Both the position numbers and the translations under genes were made by a program. Source: Candidatus Latescibacterota bacterium (GTDB lineage Bacteria > Latescibacterota > UBA2968 > GCA-2709665). Taken from it: a stretch of 64,000 nucleotides of DNA. The DNA lies in assembly GCA_965248435.1 (NCBI GenBank), contig OZ252100.1, positions 5,369,044 to 5,433,043 of the forward strand. The letters are read 5' to 3'. How positions within the stretch are numbered: position 1 is the first letter of the stretch; every line of letters begins with the position of its first letter. Positions 31,927 through 46,137 of the stretch are shown here, piece after piece. Under the pieces are notes generated by a model. It was not told the origin of the DNA. It made no database searches and was given only the letters and a program-made list of their open reading frames with translations.

Positions 31927-33085
31927 CGGGGGAATTGCGGCATATAAGAGTGTAGAGGTCTTGCGCCGCCTTCTGCGAATCGGTGCAGAGGTGCGGGTGG
32001 TGATGACCCCATCTGCACGCCAGTTTATTCAACCGCTGACCTTTGAAGTCCTCTCCCGTCACCGGGTCTACACGGAACTCTTTCCCGAACGAGAAAATAC
32101 CGAAGTTGCGCACGTCACCCTGGCAAACTGGCCGGACCTGATCCTTGTGGCTCCGGCGACGGCTCATCTGATCGGCAGGATGGCCAACGGGTTGGCAGAC
32201 GATCTGTTGACGTGTATTCTTCTGGCCACGCGTGCCCCGGTGGTGCTGGCGCCCTCGATGGAGAGCGCAATGTACGAGCACGCCGCGGTGCAGAATAACA
32301 TTCAAAGGCTGCACCGAGCGGGTTACCAACTCTTGGAACCGGAAAGCGGTGAGCTCGCCTCCGGGGAGGTGGGTGTGGGCAGGCTGCCGCACCCCGATCG
32401 GATCGTTTCCGCCGTCGAGGAGAGATTGGAGAAGAGCGATGCATTCGCGGGCAGGAAGATCGTGGTGACTGCATCGCGCACTGAGGAAGATATCGACCCG
32501 GTTCGATTTATCACGAATAGATCTTCTGGAAAGATGGGATATGCAGTTGCAAGTCAGGCCCACCGGAGAGGGGCGGAGGTGGTCCTTGTCAGCGGACCGA
32601 CGGCCCTGGATGCACCGTCCGGAGTCGAAGTGGTCCCGGTGCGGACCGTCTCAGAGATGCGCAACGCCACAACGGCCGCGTTTCAAGATGCCGACGTGCT
32701 GATCATGGCCGCTGCCGTGCTGGATTTTAGACCTAAGCGCGTTGCGCATTCAAAGATCAAGAAGGGAGGCAACGGCTTACGCCTGGATCTCGAACCCACT
32801 GAAGACATCCTTTTGGATCTGGGACCGGAAAAAGGGAGCCGGATGCTCGTCGGATTCGCAATGGAAACTGAAAATGGCCTGGCCAACGCCAGGAAGAAGC
32901 TGAAAGCCAAAAATCTTGATCTGATCGTATTGAATGACATTACCGTGGAGGGGTCGGGTTTTGGTGGCGACACAAACCAGGTGACCCTGGTTGATCGGTC
33001 AGAGTCCGTCGAAAAATTGCCCAAGATGACGAAGGCCGAAGCGGCTGAACGAATTCTAAACTGGATCGGCGCGCGATGGCAATAG
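31886..33085 (+). CDS. coaBC: bifunctional phosphopantothenoylcysteine decarboxylase/synthetase
   Basis: ILLGISGGIAAYKSVEVLRRL flavoprotein N-terminus, PAT/ANGLADDLL motif, and C-terminal DFP domain (ITNRSSGKMG). Confidence 0.9.
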   Translation: MPLLRKSRILLGISGGIAAYKSVEVLRRLLRIGAEVRVVMTPSARQFIQPLTFEVLSRHRVYTELFPERENTEVAHVTLANWPDLILVAPATAHLIGRMANGLADDLLTCILLATRAPVVLAPSMESAMYEHAAVQNNIQRLHRAGYQLLEPESGELASGEVGVGRLPHPDRIVSAVEERLEKSDAFAGRKIVVTASRTEEDIDPVRFITNRSSGKMGYAVASQAHRRGAEVVLVSGPTALDAPSGVEVVPVRTVSEMRNATTAAFQDADVLIMAAAVLDFRPKRVAHSKIKKGGNGLRLDLEPTEDILLDLGPEKGSRMLVGFAMETENGLANARKKLKAKNLDLIVLNDITVEGSGFGGDTNQVTLVDRSESVEKLPKMTKAEAAERILNWIGARWQ

Positions 33086-33768
33086 ATGTGGGAGAAACCC
33101 CGGCGAGCGTCGAAGGCCTGGATGCCTTTCGCCTCGCCAGGGAGTATCTAAAGCAGCAAACCGAACTCGGGCTCACCCATCTGCCCGCGGCCAGTGCCAA
33201 TGCATCCGCCGAGCATCGGCTTGCCACATTCCACGATTCCATCCGGAATTGCCAGGCTTGCCGGCTTTCCAAGGGACGCCGCGTGGTGGTGTTCGGAAGC
33301 GGGTGTCCAACCGCAGACGTCCTCTTCGTCGGGGAAGCACCCGGAAAGGACGAAGACCTGCAGGGACTGCCTTTTGTGGGCGCGGCGGGGGCGCTGTTGA
33401 CTCGGATGATCGAATCGATTGGGCTTAGACGAGATGATGTCTATATTGCCAACGTCATCAAATGCCGTCCCCCGAATAACCGGGATCCTGAACCCGATGA
33501 AATCTCAAAGTGTGAGCCCTACCTTCATCGACAGGTCGAAATCATAAGCCCGATCGTGATCTGTTCACTCGGCCGGTTCGCCGCCCAGGTACTCCTGCAG
33601 ACGAACGAGTCCATGGGGAAGCTTCGGGGTCGCCTGTTTGCTTACAGGGGCATTAAGTTGATTCCGACATACCACCCCGCCGCCCTCCTCCGAAATGCAC
33701 ATTGGAAGCGGCCAGCATGGAATGATCTCAATCTGCTTCGGAGTGAATATGATAGGTTGCGGCAGTAG
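33076..33768 (+). CDS. uracil-DNA glycosylase, family 4
   Basis: CQACRL..., VLFVGEAPGKDEDLQGLPFVGAAG, and HPAALLRN near the C-terminus. Confidence 0.85.
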   Translation: MAIDVGETPASVEGLDAFRLAREYLKQQTELGLTHLPAASANASAEHRLATFHDSIRNCQACRLSKGRRVVVFGSGCPTADVLFVGEAPGKDEDLQGLPFVGAAGALLTRMIESIGLRRDDVYIANVIKCRPPNNRDPEPDEISKCEPYLHRQVEIISPIVICSLGRFAAQVLLQTNESMGKLRGRLFAYRGIKLIPTYHPAALLRNAHWKRPAWNDLNLLRSEYDRLRQ

Positions 33769-33795
33769 CCGTTTTGATTGACAACACCCTTTTGA

Positions 33796-35214
33796 ATGCC
33801 TGGCACACACACAATGACGACCGAGCAACTCAAAGCGCCATCACAATCGCAATCTGCGGACCGGATTCAGCCTAGAGCGGTAGAGGTGGAAAGAGCCGTA
33901 CTGGGTGCAATGTTGATTGATAAAGGCTCTATCGGACGCGTCCTGGAGGTCGTCGGGGACGAAACCGCATTCTACCACTCCGCACATCGAAAGATCTACT
34001 CAGCGATCGTTGGCCTCTACGACAGGGGCGAACCGGCGGATCAGATTACCGTAACGGAGGAACTCAACCGAAGGGGAGAGCTCGAGAGGGCAGGAGGTGC
34101 CGTCGAGATCGCCGGATTGGCAGGGGAAATGGCGACGGCGGTCAACGCGGAATATCACGCGAAGATCATTCTGGATCGGGCGCTCCGAAGGCGGCTGATC
34201 GAAGCCGCGACTCAGACGGCAGCCGAATGTTATGAGGAAAGCGAGGAAATTCGCGAGGTCATCGACCGAGCGGAGCAGCGCGTGTTCGGGATCGCCGAGC
34301 GTGAGTTTGGTAAGGGTATCGTAGCTCTTCAGCCTGTGCTGCACGAGGCCGTGGCGATCATTCAGAAAGCACAGGAACGTTCTGGGGCGCTCTCTGGTGT
34401 CACGACCGGGTATAAAGATCTTGATGAGATTACGGCGGGCCTCCAATCCTCAGACCTTATCATCATTGCGGGCAGACCGTCCATGGGAAAGACGGCGCTT
34501 TCCCTTTGTGTTGCCAGGAATGCGGCCGTTAAAGAGAACACTCCGGTGCTTATTTTCTCTTTGGAAATGTCTCTACAGCAACTGGCGCAGAGGCTGCTTT
34601 GTTCCGAAGCACGCGTGAATTCTCATCGCCTGAGGACCGGGAGGCTGTCGGAAGAGGAGTGGCAGCGTCTGGCTCACTGGATCGGGAAGCTTGAAAAGGC
34701 CCCGATCTTTATCGATGACACACCCGGTCTCACCGTGCTGGAGATAAGGGCCAAGGCCCGAAGGGCAAAGGCCGAGCACAACATCGGCATGGTCATCGTG
34801 GACTACCTGCAGCTCGTGAGTGTCAATGAGCGTTCGGACAATCGTGAGCAGGAGATCGCCCGGGTTTCCCGTTCCCTGAAATCGCTCGCGAAGGAACTCG
34901 ATCTTCCTGTCATCGCCTGCGCACAGCTTTCCCGTGCCGTAGAGGCGAGGGAAAAGAGGCGGCCGCAATTGTCAGATTTGAGGGAAAGTGGGAGCCTTGA
35001 GCAGGACGCCGACGTTGTGATGTTTCTCTATAGACCGGAAGTGTATGACCTTCCTGATGAGGAGGGCAACAGTCAGGAGGGGGTCACGGAGGTGATTATC
35101 GGGAAGCAGCGCAACGGTCCAACCGGGAGTGTTTATCTCACTTGGTTAGGTGAATACGGGCGTTTTGAAGAGCCTGAAATGTATCGGGACCCGATATCTT
35201 CGGGGCAGATTTAA
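33796..35214 (+). CDS. dnaB: replicative DNA helicase
   Basis: PRAVEVERAVLGAML N-terminal domain, Walker A GRPSMGKTA, VDYLQL, and QLSR..E arginine-finger region. Confidence 0.95.
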   Translation: MPGTHTMTTEQLKAPSQSQSADRIQPRAVEVERAVLGAMLIDKGSIGRVLEVVGDETAFYHSAHRKIYSAIVGLYDRGEPADQITVTEELNRRGELERAGGAVEIAGLAGEMATAVNAEYHAKIILDRALRRRLIEAATQTAAECYEESEEIREVIDRAEQRVFGIAEREFGKGIVALQPVLHEAVAIIQKAQERSGALSGVTTGYKDLDEITAGLQSSDLIIIAGRPSMGKTALSLCVARNAAVKENTPVLIFSLEMSLQQLAQRLLCSEARVNSHRLRTGRLSEEEWQRLAHWIGKLEKAPIFIDDTPGLTVLEIRAKARRAKAEHNIGMVIVDYLQLVSVNERSDNREQEIARVSRSLKSLAKELDLPVIACAQLSRAVEAREKRRPQLSDLRESGSLEQDADVVMFLYRPEVYDLPDEEGNSQEGVTEVIIGKQRNGPTGSVYLTWLGEYGRFEEPEMYRDPISSGQI

Positions 35215-35238
35215 AACGCCTTCATTAATGAGGTTAAG

Positions 35239-35880
35239 ATGGATTCGGCGAAAAGATCACACGTCTGGCTTTCGAAACTGCTTTCGCTCATGTTGAGACA
35301 CAGACCTGATGAGTTTGGGGTCACGCTGGACGCTAAAGGGTTTGGTGATCTGGAGGAGGTCCTCCAGGCGCTGCAGGACAGGGATCAGGGCGTGGGGATC
35401 GAGGATATCGAATCGGTGGTATACAAGTCTGAGAAGCAACGATTCGAGATCGCGGAAGGACGCATACGCGCTCGTTATGGTCACAGCATTCCCATCGAGC
35501 TGGATGCAGATCCGATAGAGCCTCCAGAATACTTGTATAAAGGGATCGATCTGGAGGATGTAGAACAGGTGCTAAAGGAGGGGCTAAGTCCCACCGACCG
35601 TCGTTACGTGCACCTTTCCTTTGACTCGAACGTTGCCTCACGTCTTGGCGGGAATCGGAGTAGGCCAGGGGCTGTTGTTCGCGTGGATGCACTTCGTGCC
35701 CACCAGGAAGGCATTCCCTTTTACGACTGTGGTCCAACGATCCTCACTCCCGAGGTATCGCCGGAATTTATCACGCTCGAGGAACAGGTCGAAGCGCGGC
35801 ATGTTTCGGGGAGTGAAGAGGCCGAGAAACAGGGGCCGGTCTCCTATGGCCGAAAGCGCAGGTTTGGGGGAAGGAAGTAG
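35239..35880 (+). CDS. kptA: RNA 2'-phosphotransferase (Tpt1/KptA)
   Basis: LSKLLSLMLRHRPDEFGVTLDAKGF, RFEI...IRARYGHS, YVHLS: conserved Tpt1 R-H-R-type motifs. Confidence 0.85.
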   Translation: MDSAKRSHVWLSKLLSLMLRHRPDEFGVTLDAKGFGDLEEVLQALQDRDQGVGIEDIESVVYKSEKQRFEIAEGRIRARYGHSIPIELDADPIEPPEYLYKGIDLEDVEQVLKEGLSPTDRRYVHLSFDSNVASRLGGNRSRPGAVVRVDALRAHQEGIPFYDCGPTILTPEVSPEFITLEEQVEARHVSGSEEAEKQGPVSYGRKRRFGGRK

Positions 35881-35924
35881 CTGCCCACATCGTGTGGGGG
35901 TAGAACGATTTCCAATCCGATGGG

Positions 35925-35951
35925 GACCATTCGATAAGGGATGGTCTTTTT
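35925..35951 (+). terminator. weak intrinsic terminator after kptA
   Basis: GACCAT-(10 nt)-ATGGTC followed by TTTTT. The stem is short, so confidence is low. Confidence 0.35.
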
Positions 35952-35981
35952 AGACTCTCGATCGTCTAAGAGTTATCGTCG

Positions 35982-36875
35982 ATGAGTAGAAAGAAGCCCA
36001 ATTCTGTTGCCATTTTGGAGATGGCCGGGGACCTTGCCCAGCAGACGTCAGCGGATGTGATCGTTCTGATTGCCGACTCCGGAGTGAAACGGGCCTCGCT
36101 GGAAGTCTTGAACGATGTCTGCCAGACGCTTGTCGTGACTCGGAACAAGCGCTTCCTGAGGGGAATCGAAGAGAGCGGCGTGTGGCGCGTGCAGTTCGAA
36201 TTCGAACTCGATGATGTGGCACGGTTTGAACGGGTACGGCAGGGCATTATTCTGGGTGTGGAGGCAGGATACATTCCTAAAGGGAGCCGGCTCGTCTGCC
36301 TGACCGGTGTGATGGGGAGCAGTGGCGTAGATACACTCCTGCTCACAGACGCGAGTTTAGGTTTTGAGGACTTCCATCCAGATAGCGTGGCAGCCCTGGC
36401 AGGTGACCTGCCTGTTGAGGTGGTAAAGGCGGTGCTCGACCTGGCGCTGGACATCGGCCAGGAGGGTCGAGAGGGGGAGCCGGTTGGGACACTCTTTGTC
36501 GTCGGGGATTCTGAGCAGGTCATGGGCCATTCAAAAGAGATGACGTTCGACCCGTTCCGGGGCTATTCCGAGAGAGAAAAGAACATCTGCAGTCCAGACA
36601 TCGGGGAAGGGATCAGGGAGGTCGCCCTGATGGATGGCGCATTTATTGTTCAGGACGATGGTGTTATTCTAGCGGGTGGGCGATACATTACGGCTGATGT
36701 GAAGGGGCTGAGCCTGCCCAAGGGACTCGGGGCGAGACACGTCGCGGCAGCGGCCATTACGAAACACACAAACGCGATTGCCGTGGCCGTTTCGGAGTCC
36801 TCGGGCACGCTGCGTGCCTTTAGAGATGGCGAGATCGTCCTTCGCCGAGTGCCTTCACGGAGAGCGAAGGGTTAG
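35982..36875 (+). CDS. DAC (DisA_N) domain protein with non-CdaA N-terminal domain: DacZ-like diadenylate cyclase
   Basis: The C-terminal half aligns by eye to the DAC fold: GTLFVVG, ALMDGAFIV (DGA motif), GLGARHVAAAAIT (RH[R] motif, second R is V), AVAVSESSGTLRAF. No TM helices. Confidence 0.7.
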   Translation: MSRKKPNSVAILEMAGDLAQQTSADVIVLIADSGVKRASLEVLNDVCQTLVVTRNKRFLRGIEESGVWRVQFEFELDDVARFERVRQGIILGVEAGYIPKGSRLVCLTGVMGSSGVDTLLLTDASLGFEDFHPDSVAALAGDLPVEVVKAVLDLALDIGQEGREGEPVGTLFVVGDSEQVMGHSKEMTFDPFRGYSEREKNICSPDIGEGIREVALMDGAFIVQDDGVILAGGRYITADVKGLSLPKGLGARHVAAAAITKHTNAIAVAVSESSGTLRAFRDGEIVLRRVPSRRAKG

Positions 36876-36886
36876 GATTGTAGAGA

Positions 36887-37414
36887 ATGGTACTCGATCC
36901 TGAAGAGATCAGCCTGATCAAGGACGGCAAAGGTGTCGAGCTCATCCGGCGTGGGGTTCGACAGGGGATTGCGAAGATCGTCAAGGCGTTCCCGAATAGC
37001 AGTCCGCACGGCCACGTTGGACTGTTGGACGAAGATGGGTGCGAGATCGGAATGATCCGGTCTCTCGAAAAGCTGGATGCCGCGTCACGGGACCTTCTGG
37101 ATGAAGCTCTGAGGGCCGCCTACTACGTTCCTCCAATCCTTGAGGTTCTTTCCGTAGAATCTCAAGGCGGCGGTTACGTCTGGCAAGTGTCGATGGAGAG
37201 CGGGGAGCTGTCTTTCCGAACACAGGGGGCCCACACCTTGAATACTTCACAGTTTCCAAAAATTGTCGTCACAGATGAGAACGGGAGGCGATATCGCATC
37301 GAAGATTACCCGGCCCTGGATGCCTACAGCAAGGAGGCCCTGCGGGACCTGCTCCCCGACTACGTCAGGCGGGCCCAGATGGGTCTTTCGAGTCGCGTGA
37401 GACGCAAGCCTTGA
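36887..37414 (+). CDS. DUF1854 family protein
   Basis: AFPNSSPHGHVGLLDEDGCEIGMIRSLEKLDAASRDLLDEAL...YVPPILEVLSV....WQV matches my memory of DUF1854. Starts 11 nt after the DAC gene. Confidence 0.65.
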   Translation: MVLDPEEISLIKDGKGVELIRRGVRQGIAKIVKAFPNSSPHGHVGLLDEDGCEIGMIRSLEKLDAASRDLLDEALRAAYYVPPILEVLSVESQGGGYVWQVSMESGELSFRTQGAHTLNTSQFPKIVVTDENGRRYRIEDYPALDAYSKEALRDLLPDYVRRAQMGLSSRVRRKP

Positions 37415-37452
37415 GTGCGACAGGGACCTGGCGTTGATCCAGTTTTAGGCCT

Positions 37453-38808
37453 GTGATCGGAATGAGCAGAGCGCCGTTGGTAGTGGCGGGGATCCTCATT
37501 GAAATCTGTTTGATCGGCATGCTGATCCTGGGAGATCTTTCCCGGAACGTGCCGATTTTTTTTGTTCTTTTCTTCTCCGCTTTCGGCATCTACCTGGCTG
37601 CCGTATGGAGGGCCAGAGCGGCCCACCTCAAACTTGCCTTCTTGTTCGGATTGATCTTCCGCGCCACCCTCCTTCCTTCCACACCCAGCTTGTCCGACGA
37701 CATCTACCGCTATCTTTGGGATGCCCGAGTACAGTCAGAGACAATCAATCCCTATAAATATGCACCAGGCGCGCCGGAGTTGGCCCACCTCAGGGAAGAC
37801 ACGATCTACCCCCGAGTCAATCACCCGGACGTGCCAACGATCTATCCGCCCCTCGCGCAGATCACCTTTCTGGCCTCTACGCTCCTCTCGCCCACGGTGT
37901 GGGCGTTGAAGCTTTTTCTTGTCGGACTGGATCTACTCACCGCGTGGCTCTTGATCGGGCTGCTCCGAACCTACGATTTGCATACCGGACGCATCCTGAT
38001 CTATCTGTGGAACCCCCTGCTGATCCTCGAGGTCGCAGGCAATGGACACATGGACATCCTTGGCGTGACCTTCCTGATCCTTTCATTCCTCTACGTATCA
38101 GTTGGAGGCACCGGTCGGGCAGCTTGTGCCCTCGGACTTTCCGTGCTTGGGAAGGGGTTCGCGATCTGTCTGTTGCCCATGTTCCTGCGGTGGGCGCACG
38201 CCAGAAGTCATTCGGAAGAACGGCCAGCTCCCAAGGCCTGGCCGTTCGTTCTGTTTGGCGGGACGGTGTCGGCGGGAGTGTTGCCCTACGCTGACGTTGG
38301 ATGGGGCCTGTTTGCAGGTTTGTGGATCTACGCAAAACACTGGGAATTCAACGCCAGCGTATACGGTCTCCTGAATGGGGTATTAGAACTGGGAGACCTT
38401 TCTCGCGTTGCAGTGGGCGTGCTTTTTCTGGGTGCCGTCCTTGCCCTAACATTCAAGAATGTGCATCCCATCCGGTCCGGATACCTTCTTGCAGGGCTTT
38501 TCGTTTTGCTGACCCCGACGCTTCACCCGTGGTACCTGATTTGGATCATCCCCTTCCTGGTGTTCTACGCGAGCCCGGCGTGGTTGGTGTTCACAGGGTT
38601 GGTCGCGCTTTCCTACCACGTTTTGATTCAGTTCCGATCCGCGGGTATTTGGGAGGAGGCGGGTTGGGTCAAGGCGGTAGAGTATGGTGGCTTCATTGCG
38701 GTCTGGATTGCAGAACGAATGTGGCGGGAGTTGAGAAAAGAAAAGGGCCCCCCGGTTGGAGAGGGCCCTTTGCCAAGCCGTGCGTCGGCTGGTGAGAATG
38801 GACTCTAG
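37453..38808 (+). CDS. GT-C fold membrane glycosyl(mannosyl)transferase, DUF2029/GT87-MptB-like
   Basis: About 11 TM helices. First-loop motif SDDIYRYLWDARVQSETINPYKY resembles the D-x-Y...NPY loop of polyprenol-phosphate-sugar transferases. Confidence 0.55.
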   Translation: MIGMSRAPLVVAGILIEICLIGMLILGDLSRNVPIFFVLFFSAFGIYLAAVWRARAAHLKLAFLFGLIFRATLLPSTPSLSDDIYRYLWDARVQSETINPYKYAPGAPELAHLREDTIYPRVNHPDVPTIYPPLAQITFLASTLLSPTVWALKLFLVGLDLLTAWLLIGLLRTYDLHTGRILIYLWNPLLILEVAGNGHMDILGVTFLILSFLYVSVGGTGRAACALGLSVLGKGFAICLLPMFLRWAHARSHSEERPAPKAWPFVLFGGTVSAGVLPYADVGWGLFAGLWIYAKHWEFNASVYGLLNGVLELGDLSRVAVGVLFLGAVLALTFKNVHPIRSGYLLAGLFVLLTPTLHPWYLIWIIPFLVFYASPAWLVFTGLVALSYHVLIQFRSAGIWEEAGWVKAVEYGGFIAVWIAERMWRELRKEKGPPVGEGPLPSRASAGENGL

Positions 38809-40304
38809 CGACTCAGCTTTGCGCCTTCGACCGTCCTGTCCCCTGGCGACGGAAGGGGCTTTTTAGGCCCATCGTTATTGGAAGGTGGCCTAAGCTCCTT
38901 CGAGGTCGGCCCGTTTCCTTCTTCCCTGGACTTAACCAGGTTGCTCAGTTCGTGCACGAAATGCAGGTGCTCCTCTGCGGTTTCAGAGACGTCGATGAAC
39001 AGATCGTGCTTCAGGGCCCGAATCCCCTTCTCGAAGTACTCCCAAACACCGTAGAGAACGACGGACGAAAGGAAGAGGCCCAGGCCGCTGCACGCCGCTG
39101 TAATCGCCGAGAAGGGGGGCTGGAGGTAGCCAAAGATACCGATCCAGCTCGAGGCGAGCAGCAGGACAGAGAGGCCGAACATCACGTTACGTTTTCGATA
39201 CTGGAGGTCCGCGTTCCAATATCGCTCGATCTGCCGACTCCGGACTTTTTCAAGCTGCAGCATACGTTGATAGGCGGCCTCTGTGAACGTCTCGTCCGGA
39301 TTCGTGCTCCACTCTGAAATTCGGCGCCAAAGTCGGTAAAGCTGGTACTCGAATTCCACGTCTTCGATCACATCTGGCACAAGGAAAGACTTTTTTCCGA
39401 AGCTCTTGTGGATCTCGGGGATATATTTGCAGTGGAACGGAGCCCTACGGCTGGTCTTTTCGCCTGGGCGGAGGTTTGGATCCTTATTCAGTGCAATGAA
39501 AGGCTGCTTGATTCGGTGTTCCCCGTTTTTTGCGCTTGAGGATGTGGCGTAAGAAATCGTGTAGCGCAGTGTATCGTCCATCGCCTCGAAGGAGATGTCA
39601 TCGGTTTCGGATACCACGACAACGAAGGGGGATAGGATAGATGCAGCCAGACCTATGTCGTCGAAAGCCGACGCACAATCCACGATGATGTAATCGTAAT
39701 GGTTAAGGGATTTGATAGCGGAGATGAGCAGTGAGAACGCTTCCACGACGAGGCTGAGGTTGTGGCCACTTCTCTCTCGAAGGAAGATGCTGCTGCTGAT
39801 GGAGGACTGCTGTTCCTTCGTGTAGTAGGATGGCAAGATGTCAATTCTCTTGCCGTTCGGTGCCTTGTCTATCGAAAGGAGCTGGCTTCGGTCGTGGATC
39901 CCCTTAAGCCACTCGCCCATTTGTTCACCTTCGATCCCAAGAAGGCAGTTGTAATATGAGCGCAGGTTCTCAGCGATGACCTTCCGCCCTGGAAAGATCA
40001 GGTTCGTGAGGGTCTTTGTCGTAAAATCGGCGTCGAGCAGCAGGACGTTGTAGCCGCAGAGCTGAAGAATTCTGCCCAGGTTGGAGGCCAGGATCGTTTT
40101 GCCAGAGCCGCCTTTCGGGCTCAGGAAGGAGATGAGCTTGCAATCAGTGCCCACAGCGCCCGCTGAGACCTTGAATTTGAGGTCGTGACTCTCTCTGGAG
40201 AGTCTGATTTCTAGCGTGCCCTGGTCCAGGCCGGAAGTCTGGGCGGAGGCTTCCGGTTGCTCGCCGGACGAGGCCCCTTTTGTGCTAAGCATGACTTCCT
40301 CCAC
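38805..40304 (-). CDS. ParA/MinD-superfamily P-loop NTPase with C-terminal 2-TM module
   Basis: Deviant Walker A SPKGGSGKT, LLLDAD, and Walker B YIIVDC. C-terminus: VMFGLSVLLLASSWIGIFGYL and AACSGLGLFLSSVVLYGVW, flanked by helices. Confidence 0.65.
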   Translation of the reverse strand: MEEVMLSTKGASSGEQPEASAQTSGLDQGTLEIRLSRESHDLKFKVSAGAVGTDCKLISFLSPKGGSGKTILASNLGRILQLCGYNVLLLDADFTTKTLTNLIFPGRKVIAENLRSYYNCLLGIEGEQMGEWLKGIHDRSQLLSIDKAPNGKRIDILPSYYTKEQQSSISSSIFLRERSGHNLSLVVEAFSLLISAIKSLNHYDYIIVDCASAFDDIGLAASILSPFVVVVSETDDISFEAMDDTLRYTISYATSSSAKNGEHRIKQPFIALNKDPNLRPGEKTSRRAPFHCKYIPEIHKSFGKKSFLVPDVIEDVEFEYQLYRLWRRISEWSTNPDETFTEAAYQRMLQLEKVRSRQIERYWNADLQYRKRNVMFGLSVLLLASSWIGIFGYLQPPFSAITAACSGLGLFLSSVVLYGVWEYFEKGIRALKHDLFIDVSETAEEHLHFVHELSNLVKSREEGNGPTSKELRPPSNNDGPKKPLPSPGDRTVEGAKLSR

Positions 40305-40345
40305 TTCGGGTGGGGAGTTGGGGAGATAAGCACCTTATTTCGAAC

Positions 40346-40374
40346 AATTTATGAGGTCATCTCGGACCTGTCAA
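40346..40374 (-). promoter_or_regulatory. sigma70-like promoter of the ParA-2TM gene
   Basis: The minus strand reads TTGACA (40374-40369), 17 nt, TAAATT (40351-40346). GGAGG SD lies before the start at 40304. Confidence 0.45.
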
Positions 40375-40460
40375 GCGGAAATTAAGCAAACTATTGGCTT
40401 TCCAAAGCCCAGTTTGGTGCTGATCCGGGCGGGGTTGTGTCGGTTCATCCCTGCGATGCA

Positions 40461-41276
40461 TCAGGTTTCGACCGGAAAAACCTCTGGCAGGAGCCGGTCT
40501 AAGGGAGATTGAAACCTGAAGGTCTCTGTGAGGTTCCGGTATGCCCTTATCGAGTTCCTGGACTTTGCCTGAGTTTGTCGCAGGGCCCGAATCATCACGT
40601 TTTTGGGGGTATAACTGGCCGGGATGAAGGTAATGACCTTGACCTTATACTCTGCCGCTTCAAGGGCCAGGGTTCGGGCCCCTTCGGTTAGCATAGCCGT
40701 AAGGTGATTCCGGAAGACACCGTGTTTGGAGATATCGCTGAATGGGTGCCCCCCGTTCATATGACGTCCGACGTAGCTCTGGCAACAGGGGACCAGAATA
40801 ATGCCTCGAGCATTTAACCGGATCCCGGCGGCAAGGGCCTCGTCTGTCGCCGTATCACAGGCGTGTAACGCATAGATGATGTCAGGTTTTTGGGAGGGAC
40901 ATACCTCCAGAATGCCTCCTGCGTGGAACTCCATGTTTTCGAACTCGAGTTCATCGGCCACGCTCCGACTGGCTTCAACCAGATCTTCACGGTGGTCCAC
41001 CCCAATAAAATGAGCCGGTCTCTCCAGCTTTCGGGTGAGAATGGCGTTCAAGACAAACGACAGGTAACTGCGCCCACAGCCGGCGTCGAGGAGCACCAGG
41101 GGTTTGTTCTTCTTCATGTACCGAGCAAGCGCCAGCAGGTGAGTAAGAAACGCCATGACTTCGTGGTACTTTTTTTCGTGATCTTTGAATAGCTCGCCGC
41201 CGGACGAGAGCAGGCCGATGGCCTTCAGGATCTCCTGGAATTCGGTCTGGCTGAAGAAGGGGTTGTCTTTTAGCAA
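40461..41276 (-). CDS. class I SAM-dependent methyltransferase (Methyltransf_32-like)
   Basis: VLLDAGCGRSYLSFVL (motif I), IGVDH, ALHACDTATDEAL and LVPCC match this family's pattern. TTG start with GGAGG SD. Confidence 0.7.
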   Translation of the reverse strand: MLKDNPFFSQTEFQEILKAIGLLSSGGELFKDHEKKYHEVMAFLTHLLALARYMKKNKPLVLLDAGCGRSYLSFVLNAILTRKLERPAHFIGVDHREDLVEASRSVADELEFENMEFHAGGILEVCPSQKPDIIYALHACDTATDEALAAGIRLNARGIILVPCCQSYVGRHMNGGHPFSDISKHGVFRNHLTAMLTEGARTLALEAAEYKVKVITFIPASYTPKNVMIRALRQTQAKSRNSIRAYRNLTETFRFQSPLDRLLPEVFPVET

Positions 41277-41323
41277 GATCTGATTACCTCCGTCTCTGGA
41301 TTCGGCCTCTCAGGGTTGCCGGC

Positions 41324-41352
41324 AAAGTAGAAAAGGGGGTCTCCCTTGTCAA
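41324..41352 (-). promoter_or_regulatory. sigma70-like promoter of the methyltransferase gene
   Basis: The minus strand reads TTGACA (41352-41347), 17 nt, TACTTT (41329-41324). Confidence 0.4.
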
Positions 41353-41382
41353 GGCGAATGGGTCGATTCTGGCAAAAAGCGC

Positions 41383-41411
41383 TTGACTGGAGGGACACAA
41401 ATCTGTAGATT
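41383..41411 (+). promoter_or_regulatory. rightward sigma70-like promoter now separated from downstream genes by the IS30
   Basis: TTGACT (41383-41388), 17 nt, TAGATT (41406-41411). An AAGGAGG follows at 41443-41449 with no canonical start codon before the IS end. Confidence 0.35.
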
Positions 41412-41517
41412 CATTCGATTTGGTTTTATCCTCAATAAAATAAGGAGGATATATACATTTCAAGAGGCGTAATTCAAGTGTCTTTGCTGAAACTTGGCAA
41501 CCCGGAATCGATGTGCT

Positions 41518-41543
41518 GGATTCAATGACTAAGTGCAACACTT
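41518..41543. repeat. IS30 terminal inverted repeat (transposase 3' side)
   Basis: GGATTCAATGACTAAGTGCAACACTT. The reverse complement of 42541-42566 is GAGTTCAATAAGGAAGTGCAACACTT. The core AAGTGCAACACTT is identical. Confidence 0.6.
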
Positions 41544-42512
41544 GGACTTGAAGACTTCAGCTGGTGTTTTGAAGTTAAGACATTTTCTTGGTCGGTTGTT
41601 GATCCGGTTCTGAATTTTCTTTAACTCGTGTTTGCTGACCTTTGAGAAGTCTGTCTTCTTGGGGAGGTATCTGCGGACCAGACCGATAGCGTTTTCCACA
41701 GCGCCTCGCTCCCAGCTGTGGAACGGTTTGCAGAAATAGGATTTGGTGCCAAGCACCTCGTTGACCCGTTGATGTTGGCCGTTTTCGGATCCGTTGTCAT
41801 ATGTGATGCTCTTCCTCATGTGGGGAGGATGTCGCCCAAGGCGTCGATTAATCGCTTCGGCGACCTCCGAGGGTCCGTTCTTTGCCAGCTTAGCCAGGTG
41901 TAGGTATCTCGACGATCGCTCAAGACAAGCGCCAACGGCCTGTTTGCTCTCACGAGAGATGATGGTGTCGGATTCCCAGTGGCCAGGTTGTTTCCGTTTT
42001 TCGATGTAACGGGGACGTCGATCGATCGAAATACGGCCTGGAATGTGGCTTTCCCGGTGTTTTCGGGTATGCCACCGCGGCTTTCGTTTTTTGTGAGCTC
42101 GGGATAAGCAAGCAACCAGATCCCGCTGCTTGTGCACCTTTGGATCGTAGATATACTGGTAGATGGCTTCGTGGCTGATACCCGCGCTCGGACGCTCCTC
42201 GGGAAGCCTCCCAGCGATCAACTCGGGAGACCATCCTTGCTTGAGTTTGGTCTCGACATATCGCCGGATAACCGGATTCTTCAGCCGTTTCCGCTTGCCG
42301 GCCTCCCGCTTACGTTTCTCAGCCCTTCTGTGAGCCTGGAGGCCCGAGTAACTCTCAGCTATCGGGGACGGATTACGTTTCAACTCTCTTGAAATCGTGC
42401 TGGCGCTCCGGTCAAGGGCCTTGGCAATATCTCTAAGGCTTGCACCAGTGGCTCGACAAAGCGCAATCTGCTCGCGTTCGTCTATCGTAAGATGCTTGTA
42501 ATTGTTTCCCAT
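41529..42512 (-). CDS. IS30-family transposase
   Basis: N-terminal HTH LTIDEREQIALCRATGASLRDIAKALDRSASTISRELKRN, GHWESDT, YDNGSE and F.P..SWERG..EN are typical of IS30 DDE transposases. Full length, 327 aa. Confidence 0.9.
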   Translation of the reverse strand: MGNNYKHLTIDEREQIALCRATGASLRDIAKALDRSASTISRELKRNPSPIAESYSGLQAHRRAEKRKREAGKRKRLKNPVIRRYVETKLKQGWSPELIAGRLPEERPSAGISHEAIYQYIYDPKVHKQRDLVACLSRAHKKRKPRWHTRKHRESHIPGRISIDRRPRYIEKRKQPGHWESDTIISRESKQAVGACLERSSRYLHLAKLAKNGPSEVAEAINRRLGRHPPHMRKSITYDNGSENGQHQRVNEVLGTKSYFCKPFHSWERGAVENAIGLVRRYLPKKTDFSKVSKHELKKIQNRINNRPRKCLNFKTPAEVFKSKCCT

Positions 42513-42540
42513 ACACTTAGGATAGGACAGTTGCTACCCT

Positions 42541-42566
42541 AAGTGTTGCACTTCCTTATTGAACTC
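42541..42566. repeat. IS30 terminal inverted repeat (transposase 5' side)
   Basis: AAGTGTTGCACTTCCTTATTGAACTC, the inverted partner of 41518-41543. Confidence 0.6.
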
Positions 42567-42694
42567 GGGTGTTCGGTTCGGGGCCTCTCTTTTCCGGGAA
42601 CCACACACACTAACTCAGCCGACAAAATTCGGGAACCTGTAATTCCTTTCGGCGTCTTTAAATTCTGACTTGCTTTGGGGAGGGTCAATCGTCG

Positions 42695-43192
42695 ATGATG
42701 CGAAAGTACGCGACTGTATGGATGCTCTGTTTCGGAGCCCTGATTGCGGCGTGCAGTCAGGAATCTCCGGACGAGCTGCTGACCAAGGGGGAGGATGCGA
42801 CACACAGTGTGTCTACCTATCCCCAGGCAGAACGCTATCTCGTCAAATTTTTGGATATTTATCCAGATGATCCCCGGGCAGATGTCGCCCTGCAGGCCCT
42901 CGCACGGGTCCTTCTTGGACAGAAAAAACATCAAGATGCGATTCAGCGGTATGATGAGCTGATCACGCGGTTCCCGAACAGCCGGTACGTGGATCAAGCC
43001 CAGTTCATGGTTGGCTATATCCACGACCAGCAAGGCAGACTTGATCTTGCGAGAGAAGCCTACCTGAAGCTGATAGAGGCGTATCCCGAATCAGATTTGA
43101 TAGATGACGCACGGGCGTCGGTCGAAAATTTGGGTAAGGTCCCGGAGGCTTGGCTGTTTCCGGATTCTGCTCACGCGGAAGCCGGAGAATAG
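42695..43192 (+). CDS. TPR lipoprotein (BamD/YbgF-like)
   Basis: Lipobox LIAAC. YPDDPRADVALQALARVLL..., FPNSRYVDQAQFMVGYI and YPESDLIDDAR are YfiO/YbgF-type repeats. Confidence 0.6.
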   Translation: MMRKYATVWMLCFGALIAACSQESPDELLTKGEDATHSVSTYPQAERYLVKFLDIYPDDPRADVALQALARVLLGQKKHQDAIQRYDELITRFPNSRYVDQAQFMVGYIHDQQGRLDLAREAYLKLIEAYPESDLIDDARASVENLGKVPEAWLFPDSAHAEAGE

Positions 43193-43285
43193 GTCTCCGC
43201 TCGATAGGCTCAGATTCCCACTCCGGAAGGCCTGCATTCCAGGCACTCCGATTTCCGATTTGCTCTCTCGCGGCAGGTATGAACC

Positions 43286-44281
43286 ATGCAGATGGCGGAG
43301 GACATACAGGCAGTCAATGAGAAGGTCTCTCGAGAGAGCGCCTTTGTAGATAGGGTGGTCAAGGGCGTAGGTGAGGTGATTGTTGGTCAGCAAGAGATGA
43401 TCGAGCGTCTTTTGATCGGGCTTCTCTGCAATGGGCACGTATTGCTCGAGGGCGTCCCGGGATTGGCGAAGACGTTAACGATCAACACTCTGGCTCAGAC
43501 CATCGATGCGACCTTCCAGCGCATTCAGTTTACCCCTGATCTGCTGCCAGCCGACCTGATCGGGACGATGATCTACCATCAGCCGAGCGGCGAGTTCGTG
43601 CCCAAGAAGGGGCCGATCTTCGCGCAGCTGGTTCTCGCGGACGAGGTCAACCGAGCGCCTGCGAAGGTTCAAAGTGCGATGCTGGAGGCCATGCAAGAAC
43701 GGCAGGTTACGATTGGGGATCAAACCTTCCTGATGGAAGACCCCTTTCTCGTGCTGGCAACGCAAAATCCGATTGAGCAAGAAGGTACGTATCCTTTGCC
43801 TGAAGCCCAGGTCGATCGATTCATGATTAAGTTCAAGGTCACCTATCCCAGTCGTGAAGAGGAGCGGGCGATCGTAGATCGGATGAGCGGCGGGTCGGTA
43901 CCGTCCGCCAGGCCCCTGGTCAGTACCGAGGACATTCAACGCGCCAGGTCTGTTGTAGAGGAAATCTACATCGACGGGAAACTGAAAGATTACATCGTAG
44001 ACCTGGTTCTTGCGACACGGGATCCTGCGAAGTATGATCTGGAAGACCTCGTCGGGCTCATCGAATACGGGTGTTCTCCGAGGGGCTCCATTTACCTGAC
44101 GAAGGCGGCAAGGGCCCATGCGTTTTTACGAGGCAGGGGTTATACGACGCCCGAGGACGTCAAGGCTGTAGGGATGGACATCTTAAGACACCGGATCATC
44201 GCCACCTACGAGGCAGAGGCCGAAGAGATCACACCGGAAGACGTGATTCAACGCGTTTTTGAAAAGATCGAGGTTCCCTGA
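43286..44281 (+). CDS. moxR: MoxR-family AAA+ ATPase
   Basis: GHVLLEGVPGLAKT Walker A, VLADEVNRA Walker B, LEAMQERQVT, and GCSPRG near the C-terminus. Confidence 0.9.
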   Translation: MQMAEDIQAVNEKVSRESAFVDRVVKGVGEVIVGQQEMIERLLIGLLCNGHVLLEGVPGLAKTLTINTLAQTIDATFQRIQFTPDLLPADLIGTMIYHQPSGEFVPKKGPIFAQLVLADEVNRAPAKVQSAMLEAMQERQVTIGDQTFLMEDPFLVLATQNPIEQEGTYPLPEAQVDRFMIKFKVTYPSREEERAIVDRMSGGSVPSARPLVSTEDIQRARSVVEEIYIDGKLKDYIVDLVLATRDPAKYDLEDLVGLIEYGCSPRGSIYLTKAARAHAFLRGRGYTTPEDVKAVGMDILRHRIIATYEAEAEEITPEDVIQRVFEKIEVP

Positions 44282-44285
44282 GGCC

Positions 44286-45167
44286 ATGCTTCCCGCGGAG
44301 ATTTTGAGGAAGGTAAAGCAGATCGAGATTCGAACGCGTCACCTCGTGAATACAGTTTTCTCTGGAGAATATCACTCTGTGTTCAAGGGAAAGGGAATGG
44401 CTTTTGCCGAGGTCCGCGAATATGAATTAGGAGATGATACGCGGAACATCGACTGGAACGTCACGGCCAGGATCGGACACCCGTTTGTAAAGGTCTACGA
44501 CGAGGAGCGCGAGCTAACGGTCATGTTGATGGTAGACGCGAGCGGTTCCGAGGAATTCGGTACGGTAGAGGGGATGAAGGGGGAGATTGGAGTTGAGATT
44601 TGTGCCCTGCTCGCATTTTCTGCCATTCATAACAACGATCGCGTCGGTTTGATCATCTTCACCGACGAAGTGGAGGCCTTTATTCCTCCTAAGAAAGGGA
44701 GGAAACACGTGCTTCGGGTGATCCGTGAGCTTCTCTATTTTCGACCCAGCCGTAGAGGCACAGACATCGCAGCCGCGCTGAGTTTTCTAAACCAGGTCGC
44801 AAGGCGCAAATGCGTCGTCTTTCTCGTCTCCGATTTTATGGGCAGAGGCTTCGAGATGCCGCTTAAAGTGGCCGGCCGAAGACACGACCTGATCTCGATC
44901 GCAATTCATGATCCGAGAGAGTTTGAGTTGCCTGATGTGGGCATCATCGAACTGGAAGATGCCGAGACTGGCGAAGAGATCCTGGTGGATACATCTGACA
45001 GGCACCTTCGAACGGCATTCTCAAGCAACTTTGAGGAACGGGCGAAAACACGCAATCGACTTTTTGAGTCTGCTGGGGTAGACAAGATTGATATAAGTAC
45101 AGCGTCTTCGTATGTTGATCCTTTGAATCGCTTTTTCAGGATGCGGACTCGTAGGCTGAGGGCTTAA
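44286..45167 (+). CDS. DUF58 (VWA-like) protein
   Basis: GEYHSVFKGKGMAFAEVREYELGDDTRNIDWNVTAR is the DUF58 hallmark, followed by LMVDASGS. Confidence 0.85.
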   Translation: MLPAEILRKVKQIEIRTRHLVNTVFSGEYHSVFKGKGMAFAEVREYELGDDTRNIDWNVTARIGHPFVKVYDEERELTVMLMVDASGSEEFGTVEGMKGEIGVEICALLAFSAIHNNDRVGLIIFTDEVEAFIPPKKGRKHVLRVIRELLYFRPSRRGTDIAAALSFLNQVARRKCVVFLVSDFMGRGFEMPLKVAGRRHDLISIAIHDPREFELPDVGIIELEDAETGEEILVDTSDRHLRTAFSSNFEERAKTRNRLFESAGVDKIDISTASSYVDPLNRFFRMRTRRLRA

Positions 45168-45189
45168 ACCGAATGATGAGGGCTAAAGC

Positions 45190-46137
45190 GTGATTGAAGT
45201 CGAGCATTTGACCAAGCGATACGGGCCTCACACCGCTGTGAACGATATCTCCTTTCGGGTTGAGCGGGGGCAGATCGTCGGATTTTTGGGTCCGAACGGC
45301 GCGGGCAAGACCACGACGATGCGGATTCTGACCTGCTACCAGCCCGCGTCAGAGGGATCTGCCCGCATCGCCGGATATGACATATTTGATCAGCCGCTCG
45401 AAGTCAAGCGGCGAATCGGTTACCTGCCTGAACTTCCCCCGGTCTACGTGGACATGAAGGTAAGGTCCTACCTGGATTTTGCAGCCACGATCAAAGGAGT
45501 TTCCAAGCGGACGCGTAAAGGACGCATCGCAGATGTGATGGACCGATGCGGCATTTCAGACAGGGCGGATCAGCTGATCGGGCAGCTTTCCAAGGGGTAT
45601 CGGCAGCGCGTCGGTCTTGCGCAGGCGATTGTTCACAACCCCGATGTCATCGTTCTCGATGAACCGACGATCGGGCTGGACCCAAACCAGATCCGTGAGG
45701 TGCGAAAGTTGATCCGGAGTCTGAGTCCCGATCACACGGTCATCCTAAGCACGCACATTCTGCCAGAAGTCGAGATGACCTGCGACCGCGTGGTCATCAT
45801 CAATAAGGGGCGAATTTCTGCCGAAGATGCTACCGACAACCTCACGTCAAGGTTTAAGGGAAACGAACGATACTATTTGGAAATTGCAGGCGAGGCGCAG
45901 GATGCCGTTCGCGCCCTTCGAGAAGTTCCCGATGTCGTGGAAGTTACGAGGTCCGGAGATCCCCAGCGTGATGACGTCGTTCGACTGTTTGTTGACGCCT
46001 CGATGCGCCGTGACATCCGAGCAGATCTTGCGGCAAAGGTCGTCGAAGAGGGTCTGGGTCTGCTCGAACTGCGTAGGCTCGAGATGAGCCTCGAAGATAT
46101 CTTCCAGGAGTTGACGACGAGCGAGGAGAAGGCCTAA
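45190..46137 (+). CDS. ABC transporter ATP-binding protein (ABC-2/GldA-like)
   Basis: Walker A GPNGAGKTT, signature LSKGYRQRV, and Walker B VIVLDEPTIGLD. Confidence 0.9.
   Translation: MIEVEHLTKRYGPHTAVNDISFRVERGQIVGFLGPNGAGKTTTMRILTCYQPASEGSARIAGYDIFDQPLEVKRRIGYLPELPPVYVDMKVRSYLDFAATIKGVSKRTRKGRIADVMDRCGISDRADQLIGQLSKGYRQRVGLAQAIVHNPDVIVLDEPTIGLDPNQIREVRKLIRSLSPDHTVILSTHILPEVEMTCDRVVIINKGRISAEDATDNLTSRFKGNERYYLEIAGEAQDAVRALREVPDVVEVTRSGDPQRDDVVRLFVDASMRRDIRADLAAKVVEEGLGLLELRRLEMSLEDIFQELTTSEEKA

Follow-up and report, generated by a model that had tools for sequence, protein, structure and literature searches.

We analysed a 64,000-nucleotide stretch of the genome of a Candidatus Latescibacterota bacterium (GCA_965248435.1, contig OZ252100.1, positions 5,369,044 to 5,433,043), hereafter the window, with a focus on one reverse-strand gene referred to here as the ParA-2TM gene. 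It is well supported that its 495-amino-acid (aa) product is a cytoplasmic ParA/MinD-class ATPase permanently tethered to the membrane by a C-terminal hairpin of two transmembrane (TM) helices, and that the gene is transcribed alone. Bacteria use ParA/MinD ATPases as their standard positioning switches, and to our knowledge all those studied reach the membrane reversibly. Owing to its slow evolution, fixed synteny, vertical descent, lack of a defence signature and a lead towards motility, the protein is tentatively read as a lineage-specific cell-organisation factor, i.e. a membrane-bound ATP switch or scaffold that positions or recruits a client, and we put this at somewhat short of an even chance. 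An original prediction made from the sequence had proposed an NTPase-effector conflict gene; its solo ParA/MinD NTPase fused to a 2-TM module stands, whereas kinship to SLATT effectors and an accessory setting are not supported. PADLOC gave no defence-family match, and a conflict role seems somewhat unlikely.

The ATPase domain occupies aa ~50-330 (39303..40145, minus strand) and belongs to the ParA-type NTPases, the only domain found by Pfam in the protein. Both AAA_31 at aa 56-247 (44.5 bits; cut-off 27) and CbiA (38.2 bits; cut-off 25.4) score above their cut-offs. The deviant Walker A, LLLDAD box and hydrophobic Walker B of the original prediction are all present (SPKGGSGKT, S58-T66; LLLDAD, aa 84-89; YIIVDC, aa 201-206), and are invariant or nearly so among 19 family members. 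Within the Walker A, which holds both the signature lysine K60 and the Walker A lysine K65, G64 is nearly invariant and all other positions are invariant. D87-A-D89 (Walker A', D87-D89) and the Walker B residue D205 do not vary among the 19 sequences; a P101-G102 pair, 12 residues past D89, is nearly invariant, and an NKD motif is found at 269-271. A catalytically complete ATPase of the ParA/MinD (deviant Walker A) class is therefore what these motifs support well, at the level of sequence.

The fold agrees with this assignment. An AlphaFold2 model from the 19-member family alignment had a mean predicted local distance difference test score (pLDDT) of 58.6, with 70-89 in the ATPase core and 60-72 in the TM region. 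Foldseek searches with the model gave 90 matches in the Protein Data Bank at E ≤ 0.001, led by Soj, ParA2 and MinD (probability 1.00 for each) and also including McdA, BcsQ and CapB, so that the predicted ParA/MinD class was borne out by both Pfam and the fold. A homodimer model with ATP scored 0.69 against 0.01 for the best control and passed the tool's mark; in calibration, 20 of 30 proteins with solved homodimer structures passed it, as did 1 of 23 solved as single chains. The three runs have at least 66% of their contacts in common, with a partner pLDDT of at least 69. The modelled interface (residues 59-63 in the P-loop, 91-102, 207-215, 229-244, 270-273 and 290-300) covers the P-loop and the invariant motifs of the family. 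This pass may be a memory of solved ParA/MinD dimers and is taken as likeness, not proof. No low-error TM-TM contacts were named in the dimer model, a result that the tool calls uncertain and not evidence of absence.

The anchor is formed by the C-terminal part of the protein. A basic stalk helix (aa 338-368, 39189..39281, minus strand), with 8 K+R, continues into TM helix 1 (aa 369-390, 39123..39188, minus strand; Kyte-Doolittle peak 1.97), which a 6-residue loop, QPPFSA, joins to TM helix 2 (aa 397-417, 39042..39104, minus strand; peak 1.79). Both TM segments are helical in the AlphaFold2 model, and one long helix (aa 338-390) spans the stalk and TM1. Two conserved cytoplasmic C-terminal helices follow (aa 418-459, 38916..39041, minus strand), with a variable tail beyond. 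The predicted order of a helix, two closely spaced TM helices and further helices was thus correct. In the family alignment, RYWNADLQY.KR of the stalk helix region is invariant or nearly so, and conserved Gly, Ser and Ala abound in both TM helices. Because the two TM segments form a hairpin after the basic stalk, an inner-membrane protein with both termini in the cytoplasm is well supported.

This module had been likened to SLATT/DUF4231-type 2-TM effectors. The two share a generic layout of helix, TM, short loop, TM and helices, but no sequence relationship is detectable, and the SMODS, SLOG, TIR or STAND context is missing here. Pfam returned no SLATT or DUF4231 match, whether the whole protein was scanned at E ≤ 0.1 or its segments aa 265-465 and 335-465 at E ≤ 10; these C-terminal pieces gave chance-level matches to Gta3 and Coa3_cc only. 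The DUF4231 hidden Markov model (PF14015) finds nothing in this genome and is positive in 10 of the 168 genomes of the phylum. In a profile-profile comparison confined to DUF4231 domains, hhalign of aa 335-462 against eight such domains from the same phylum gave probabilities of 13% (local) and 4% (global) with a score of 24.5, compared with 20.8 for the reversed target and 12.2 ± 2.3 (maximum 18.4) for 40 column shuffles. The alignment is collinear, but appears hardly better than the generic helix-TM-TM-helix layout. PADLOC placed the protein in no defence family and gave a chance-level Cas10 match only. A phmmer search of aa 265-465 against 1.84 billion representatives found six proteins, all of the same family, and the ESM Atlas gave no usable match with aa 300-465. 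As far as these searches reach, the C-terminal module is an orphan without detectable relatives outside its own very small family; the SLATT reading is not supported, and the sequence carries no sign of a SLATT suicide module.

The gene had been read as a 499-aa open reading frame (ORF) starting at a GTG (38805..40304, minus strand). The GGAGG Shine-Dalgarno site assigned to that ORF is present (40298..40302, minus strand), but it lies inside the ORF, 5 nt 5' of an ATG at 40292, which it serves. Because of this spacing, and because orthologues begin at the equivalent ATG, itself preceded by GGAGG or GGAGA-like sites, the predicted true start is ATG 40292, giving the 495-aa protein (P0001) encoded by 38805..40292 (minus strand, stop included). 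The proposed promoter, TTGACA-17-TAAATT, was recovered as a sigma-70-type site at 40346..40374 on the minus strand with 10 of 12 consensus matches, and two of four aligned orthologous upstream regions (G004 and L064) keep the TTGACAG -35 box with the same spacing. At the other end, a hairpin resembling an intrinsic terminator, with 12 pairs and a T run (38742..38771, minus strand), lies 34 nt past the stop, within the last codons of a convergent ORF (37453..38808, plus strand). The stops of the two genes share 4 nt (38805-38808), as had been described. Because its own promoter and terminator bracket the gene, it looks like a monocistronic transcription unit, consistent with the earlier claim that no partner is co-transcribed. 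Its GC content resembles that of the flanks and is unremarkable.

The family is small and restricted. A word-indexed search of 5.8 billion proteins recovered 24 members at 65-90% identity, all from sources labelled as Latescibacteria- or Handelsmanbacteria-type metagenome-assembled genomes, followed by the distant protein P0025 (29%). Within the phylum, the gene was found in 8 of 168 species genomes, intact in five (this genome, G000, and G004, G038, G086 and G079) and disrupted in three (G008, G037 and G084). The G037 and G084 copies are also altered in invariant motifs (e.g. GSRKT, NAD, and stops at W128 and W322). Frameshifts occur in three metagenome copies (L072, L075 and L080) whose flanking residues are otherwise conserved; these may be assembly errors and were not counted as decay. 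The gene was not found in G001 of the same genus, in genus g3 (0/15) or in genus g6 (0/21; 0/16 in another search).

Where it is intact, the gene is strongly conserved. Copies from three families are 68-92% identical over their whole length, with all catalytic motifs invariant. The identity to the G004 and G038 orthologues is 76% and 74%, respectively, close to that of the flanking genes (DnaB 76/70, MoxR 82/70, DacZ 73/63) and above that of the fast-evolving GT-C-like gene (58/38), and its pairwise identities follow the same pattern as those of MoxR, DUF58 and DacZ. The locus has a fixed order of DnaB, KptA, a DacZ-type diadenylate cyclase, (DUF1854), a GT-C-like protein, the convergent ParA-2TM gene and, divergently, TPR, MoxR and DUF58. 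The slot between the GT-C-like gene and TPR-MoxR holds the ParA-2TM gene in seven of the eight genomes (G000, G004, G008, G037, G038, G084 and G086), and one or both of these flanks occur at 13 of 17 metagenome loci; the other four are of the type seen in G079, three being identical to it. The neighbours in this slot are core genes. Given this slot and an identity on par with DnaB and MoxR, vertical descent under strong purifying selection with repeated loss is probably the simplest account of the sequences. We infer that the gene is ancestral and chromosomal in one order or class of this phylum, whose members are uncultured and mostly marine, and that it is dispensable and has often been lost.

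The original prediction had regarded the setting of the gene as accessory because of a methyltransferase and an IS30 nearby, and both are indeed present, as a Methyltransf_32 gene (40461-41276, minus strand; E 5e-33) and an IS30-type transposase with HTH_38 and rve domains (41529-42512, minus strand), bounded by 43-nt imperfect inverted repeats (41501-41543 and 42541-42583). Both are absent from every orthologous locus; relatives hold just 31-35% paralogue-level matches to the methyltransferase elsewhere in their genomes, and G001 holds none. Because the orthologous loci lack the two genes, the accessory look of the window is attributed to a recent, local, genome-specific insertion of ~2.1 kb (40461-42583) upstream of the ATPase promoter, and the gene itself sits in a conserved slot and tracks its core flanks in identity. 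The methyltransferase also has a weak PADLOC match to mad2 (1.3e-9). Upstream of the ATPase gene, its own promoter is followed by the methyltransferase in this genome, and by an FmdB-like gene and TPR-MoxR in relatives. This small FmdB-like gene encodes a zinc ribbon (MPTYEYEC...CPxC) and a Ser/Lys-rich tail. Four relatives carry it on the other strand, between TPR and the ATPase gene (L020 8497-8838, L021 8610-8930, L052 10823-11122 and L065 547-915), and it is present neither in the window nor in L064.

Other neighbours were surveyed as well. The absence of ParB, Min and flagellar genes near the ParA-2TM gene, already pointed out from the sequence, held for the ORFs of the window and their Pfam matches. 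The convergent gene (37453-38808, plus strand) encodes a 451-aa multi-TM protein without a Pfam family and with a weak match to the GT-C mannosyltransferase MptB (E 0.0088; 14.5 bits vs a cut-off of 40), so its earlier label of glycosyltransferase was not confirmed. This GT-C-like gene is core (39/41 relatives) and fast-evolving (38-72% identity), and its co-occurrence with the ATPase gene was rejected for that reason. The slot is empty in G001, as a 307-bp gap, and no credible remnant of the ATPase gene was found in the empty slots of G001, G006, G026 and G002 (best tblastn E 0.039). In G002, a PIN-domain (VapC-like) gene takes the place of the ATPase gene between the GT-C-like gene and TPR (L037 3366-3821). 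On the far side of the convergent gene, a DacZ-type diadenylate cyclase (DAC and DacZ_P) and then DUF1854 occupy 35982-37414 of the window and are conserved beside KptA/Tpt1 and DnaB across the order. An Rfam scan of 33000-46000 gave one sub-threshold, unrelated sRNA match.

The G079-type lineage has its own surroundings (L053, G079:C53 1-9303; L067). There the ATPase gene is followed by four genes that together look like a defence island: DUF123, a HTH-SNF2/ResIII-helicase-NOV_C protein of 1192 aa, an AAA_14/DUF4143 ATPase, and a DUF1156 methylase with an additional match to an IS200-type Y1 transposase domain. DUF123 was considered as a partner and rejected, as it is confined to this lineage and to two loci that are 92% alike.

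The distant match P0025 leads to a much larger sister family of ParA-2TM proteins, here termed A3 (218 clusters at E ≤ 0.001). A3 proteins are ~355 aa long, consist of a ParA domain and two C-terminal TM helices, and carry only the source names 'ParA family protein' or 'MinD'. The hhalign match to A3 (99.4%, E 3.1e-21, 213 columns) is stronger than that to FlhG of the same genome (E 2.5e-10, 84 columns); it is limited to the ATPase domain and ends at aa ~310. The two families thus share a homologous ATPase domain, the motifs VDC..G.D, E.D..SF.A and NK, and the general layout, but their TM regions cannot be aligned. Further, the A3 gene is directly preceded by an ORF of ~150-190 aa (230-253 aa in two loci) at 13 of 15 loci examined, and 11 of these ORFs align as one membrane protein with three hydrophobic segments (alignment A4), for which Pfam, NCBIfam and PADLOC gave no match. 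The ParA-2TM family of this genome differs in lacking such a gene: neither the window nor five orthologous loci contain a small membrane ORF upstream, and the orthologous loci show only the FmdB-like gene on the other strand. A3 is scattered over Proteobacteria and Actinobacteria (Vibrio, Photobacterium, Aeromonas, Sphingomonas, Caulobacterales, Rhizobium, Umezawaea and others; loci L081-L096), beside MobA/MobC and ArdC, a RES-Xre toxin-antitoxin pair, an insertion sequence (IS) element or T5orf172, or wedged between housekeeping genes, whereas the family of this genome is syntenic and vertically inherited. No curated NCBIfam or PADLOC model scores above its cut-off for the A3 module.

A lead towards motility comes from gene co-occurrence. 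FlhA is present in seven of the eight genomes with the ParA-2TM gene versus 63 of 168 in the phylum; in family f1, the gene occurs in all three FlhA-positive genomes and in no others, and G001 of the same genus is without FlhA, FlhB and the ParA-2TM gene. These counts come from related genomes, which are not independent. FlhG of this genome lies in a flagellar cluster (G000:C1:3515000-3534900, L167) with MotB, FliN, FlhB, FlhA, FlhF, FliA, an HDOD protein and a histidine kinase. A strict dependence on flagella was rejected on the counter-example of G038, and the co-occurrence is therefore a lead towards a role in motile-cell organisation and no evidence of mechanism. Four metatranscriptome runs from four studies contained short contigs 90-99% alike, with 11 of 14 pieces on the gene and three contigs ending at 40299-40321, near the predicted start. 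RNA contigs lack strand information and may include DNA carry-over, and stretches without contig cover carry no meaning; these contigs weakly suggest expression of close relatives in seawater.

If the protein acts as a cell-organisation factor, its family and the dimer model suggest how. ATP binding would close two ATPase domains into a nucleotide-sandwich dimer across the P-loop, and dimerisation would bring two hairpins and their stalks together at the membrane. Hydrolysis would reopen the dimer, yielding an ATP-driven membrane-bound switch. A client could then be recruited or positioned at the membrane, as by MinD, FlhG and VirC1, with a fixed anchor. The protein shares with these three a deviant Walker A with the signature lysine, a Ser two residues before KGG, action at the membrane and, in the dimer model, a likeness to their ATP-sandwich dimer; theirs is a reversible C-terminal amphipathic helix, whereas two integral TM helices serve here. 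In a 2026 preprint, the Ser two residues before KGG is given as a mark of the MinD-side branch PriB2 (Li, Burroughs and Aravind, bioRxiv 10.64898/2026.10.19.760177). No MinC, MinE or FlhF gene neighbours the ParA-2TM gene. MinD proper was rejected as an identity on its sub-cut-off score (TIGR01968, 28 bits vs a cut-off of 212.9), a TM hairpin in place of an amphipathic helix and the absence of min genes nearby. Canonical MinD is above cut-off in none of 41 related genomes, where the strongest MinD-like matches are FlhG genes.

Among solved structures, the best sequence match is ParF of TP228, a small type Ib ParA (4dzz, E 1.1e-9), with a near-identical P-loop stretch. The match covers a 52-residue P-loop region and a weak Walker B stretch, and ParF itself, a partition ATPase of 206 aa, is soluble and works with a ParG partner and a centromere. 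Our literature searches found nothing specific on membrane-anchored ParA-like proteins and no papers on KGGVGR, and those on SLATT with ParA gave irrelevant matches only.

Several observations weigh against a cell-organisation role. No ParB-, MinE- or McdB-type stimulating partner is encoded beside the gene and no client was found. The gene occurs in few genomes, three of its copies are broken and two of these have changes in invariant motifs, which is odd for a gene of this kind. G038, a complete, single-contig genome with an intact gene, is without FlhA and full-length FlhB, many flagellated genomes are without the gene, and three flagellated genomes carry broken copies. The nearest relatives, A3, lie beside mobile and toxin-antitoxin genes, which fits conflict better than housekeeping. 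Finally, the structure model is of modest confidence, both on average and in the TM region.

The strongest competing explanation, somewhat unlikely in our view, is a single-gene conflict (abortive-infection) module, analogous to SLATT or 2TM effectors, in which ParA would be an NTP-dependent sensor or switch and, by dimerising or multimerising, would assemble the 2-TM hairpins so that they permeabilise the membrane. The same preprint describes a cytoplasmic ParA with a C-terminal TM domain (PCTM) among predicted immune systems of the ConB2 clade, proposed to be a membrane-linked signalling switch or multimeric assembly and paired with an upstream effector gene encoding SLATT, 2TM, caspase or CPPC-4h; standalone, receptor-like ParA proteins are also predicted to be immune (10.64898/2026.10.19.760177). 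This architecture is what the ParA-2TM protein has in common with PCTM. The hallmark of ConB2 given there, Arg in place of the Walker A Lys (10.64898/2026.10.19.760177), is not found here, as K65 is kept and invariant, and A3 keeps the Lys too. In this genome there is also no upstream effector gene and no periplasmic domain, and the locus is conserved and syntenic. The preprint also gives a PG motif downstream of sensor-1, for which P101-G102 is a candidate counterpart. Because of the retained Lys and the missing upstream gene, the ParA-2TM gene is not placed in PCTM on the features given in the preprint. A3, in turn, looks like an accessory or conflict-type module and recalls PCTM as described there.

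Further observations fit a conflict role. The NCBIfam model that aligns over most of the ATPase domain (aa 52-221) is the KGGVGR-motif variant AAA ATPase (39 bits; cut-off 90), whose Arg recalls the ConB2 hallmark of the preprint. The distribution of the gene is patchy, with broken copies; its slot holds a PIN-domain gene in G002, and in this genome a methyltransferase and an IS30 adjoin it; the G079-type gene abuts a helicase, an ATPase and a methylase; A3 relatives are scattered among mobile genes; and the TM helices show the conserved Gly, Ser and Ala richness noted above. However, there is no SLATT/DUF4231 similarity and no PADLOC match, the protein has no sensor domain, and the gene has been inherited strictly vertically in a single slot, matches DnaB and MoxR in conservation and shows no sign of diversifying regions or transfer. 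The C-terminal module also has no relatives fused to immune domains, its six matches among 1.84 billion representatives all being of its own family.

A related possibility, which we regard as unlikely, is a chromosomal suicide or immune switch in one polypeptide, in which an ATP-driven ParA sandwich dimer or multimer gates a pore formed by its own 2-TM hairpins. Such a switch, related to the two-gene ParA-2TM modules but ancient and standalone, would have been retained under strong purifying selection in a few marine lineages and repeatedly discarded in others.

It is very unlikely that the protein regulates envelope synthesis together with the convergent GT-C-like protein, as a BcsQ- or BY-kinase-like organiser of a glycan or lipid-linked polymerisation machine. 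The two genes are tail-to-tail in seven of the eight genomes and at 12 of 17 metagenome loci, with overlapping stops in this genome, and several members carry the JGI automatic name 'cellulose biosynthesis protein BcsQ'. However, the GT-C-like gene is core and stays where the ATPase gene is missing, as in the 307-bp gap of G001, which holds no remnant, and the two genes are convergent with separate signals. Matches to the BcsQ, eps_fam and EpsG models are far short of the cut-offs and confined to the P-loop region. Unlike the BY-kinases (Wzc/CapB/EpsB), the protein scores 26.8 bits against 108 for eps_fam (TIGR01007) and has no tyrosine after aa 420, and thus no C-terminal tyrosine cluster.

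That the gene is a decaying, functionless relic of an ancestral A3-like two-gene module, whose small membrane partner was lost, is hardly credible: the ~150-aa 3-TM gene upstream in the sister family (13/15 loci) and missing here, and the several disrupted copies, would fit it, but neutral decay is incompatible with 68-92% full-length identity across three families and with every catalytic motif invariant in the intact copies.

The ParA-2TM gene thus offers a natural case of a ParA/MinD ATPase that is fixed in the membrane through a hairpin of its own. The gene matches DnaB in conservation even though it has been lost repeatedly, and its C-terminal module is an orphan. The practical reach of the finding is limited, as the hosts are uncultured; it also points to a widespread sister module of a ParA-2TM protein and a 3-TM protein. 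If the effector reading were correct, the protein would be a new ParA-gated membrane effector and a first experimental handle on the recently predicted ParA-based immune systems. If the protein is a scaffold, as we tentatively favour, it would be a new fixed-anchor positioning ATPase in bacteria without MinD.

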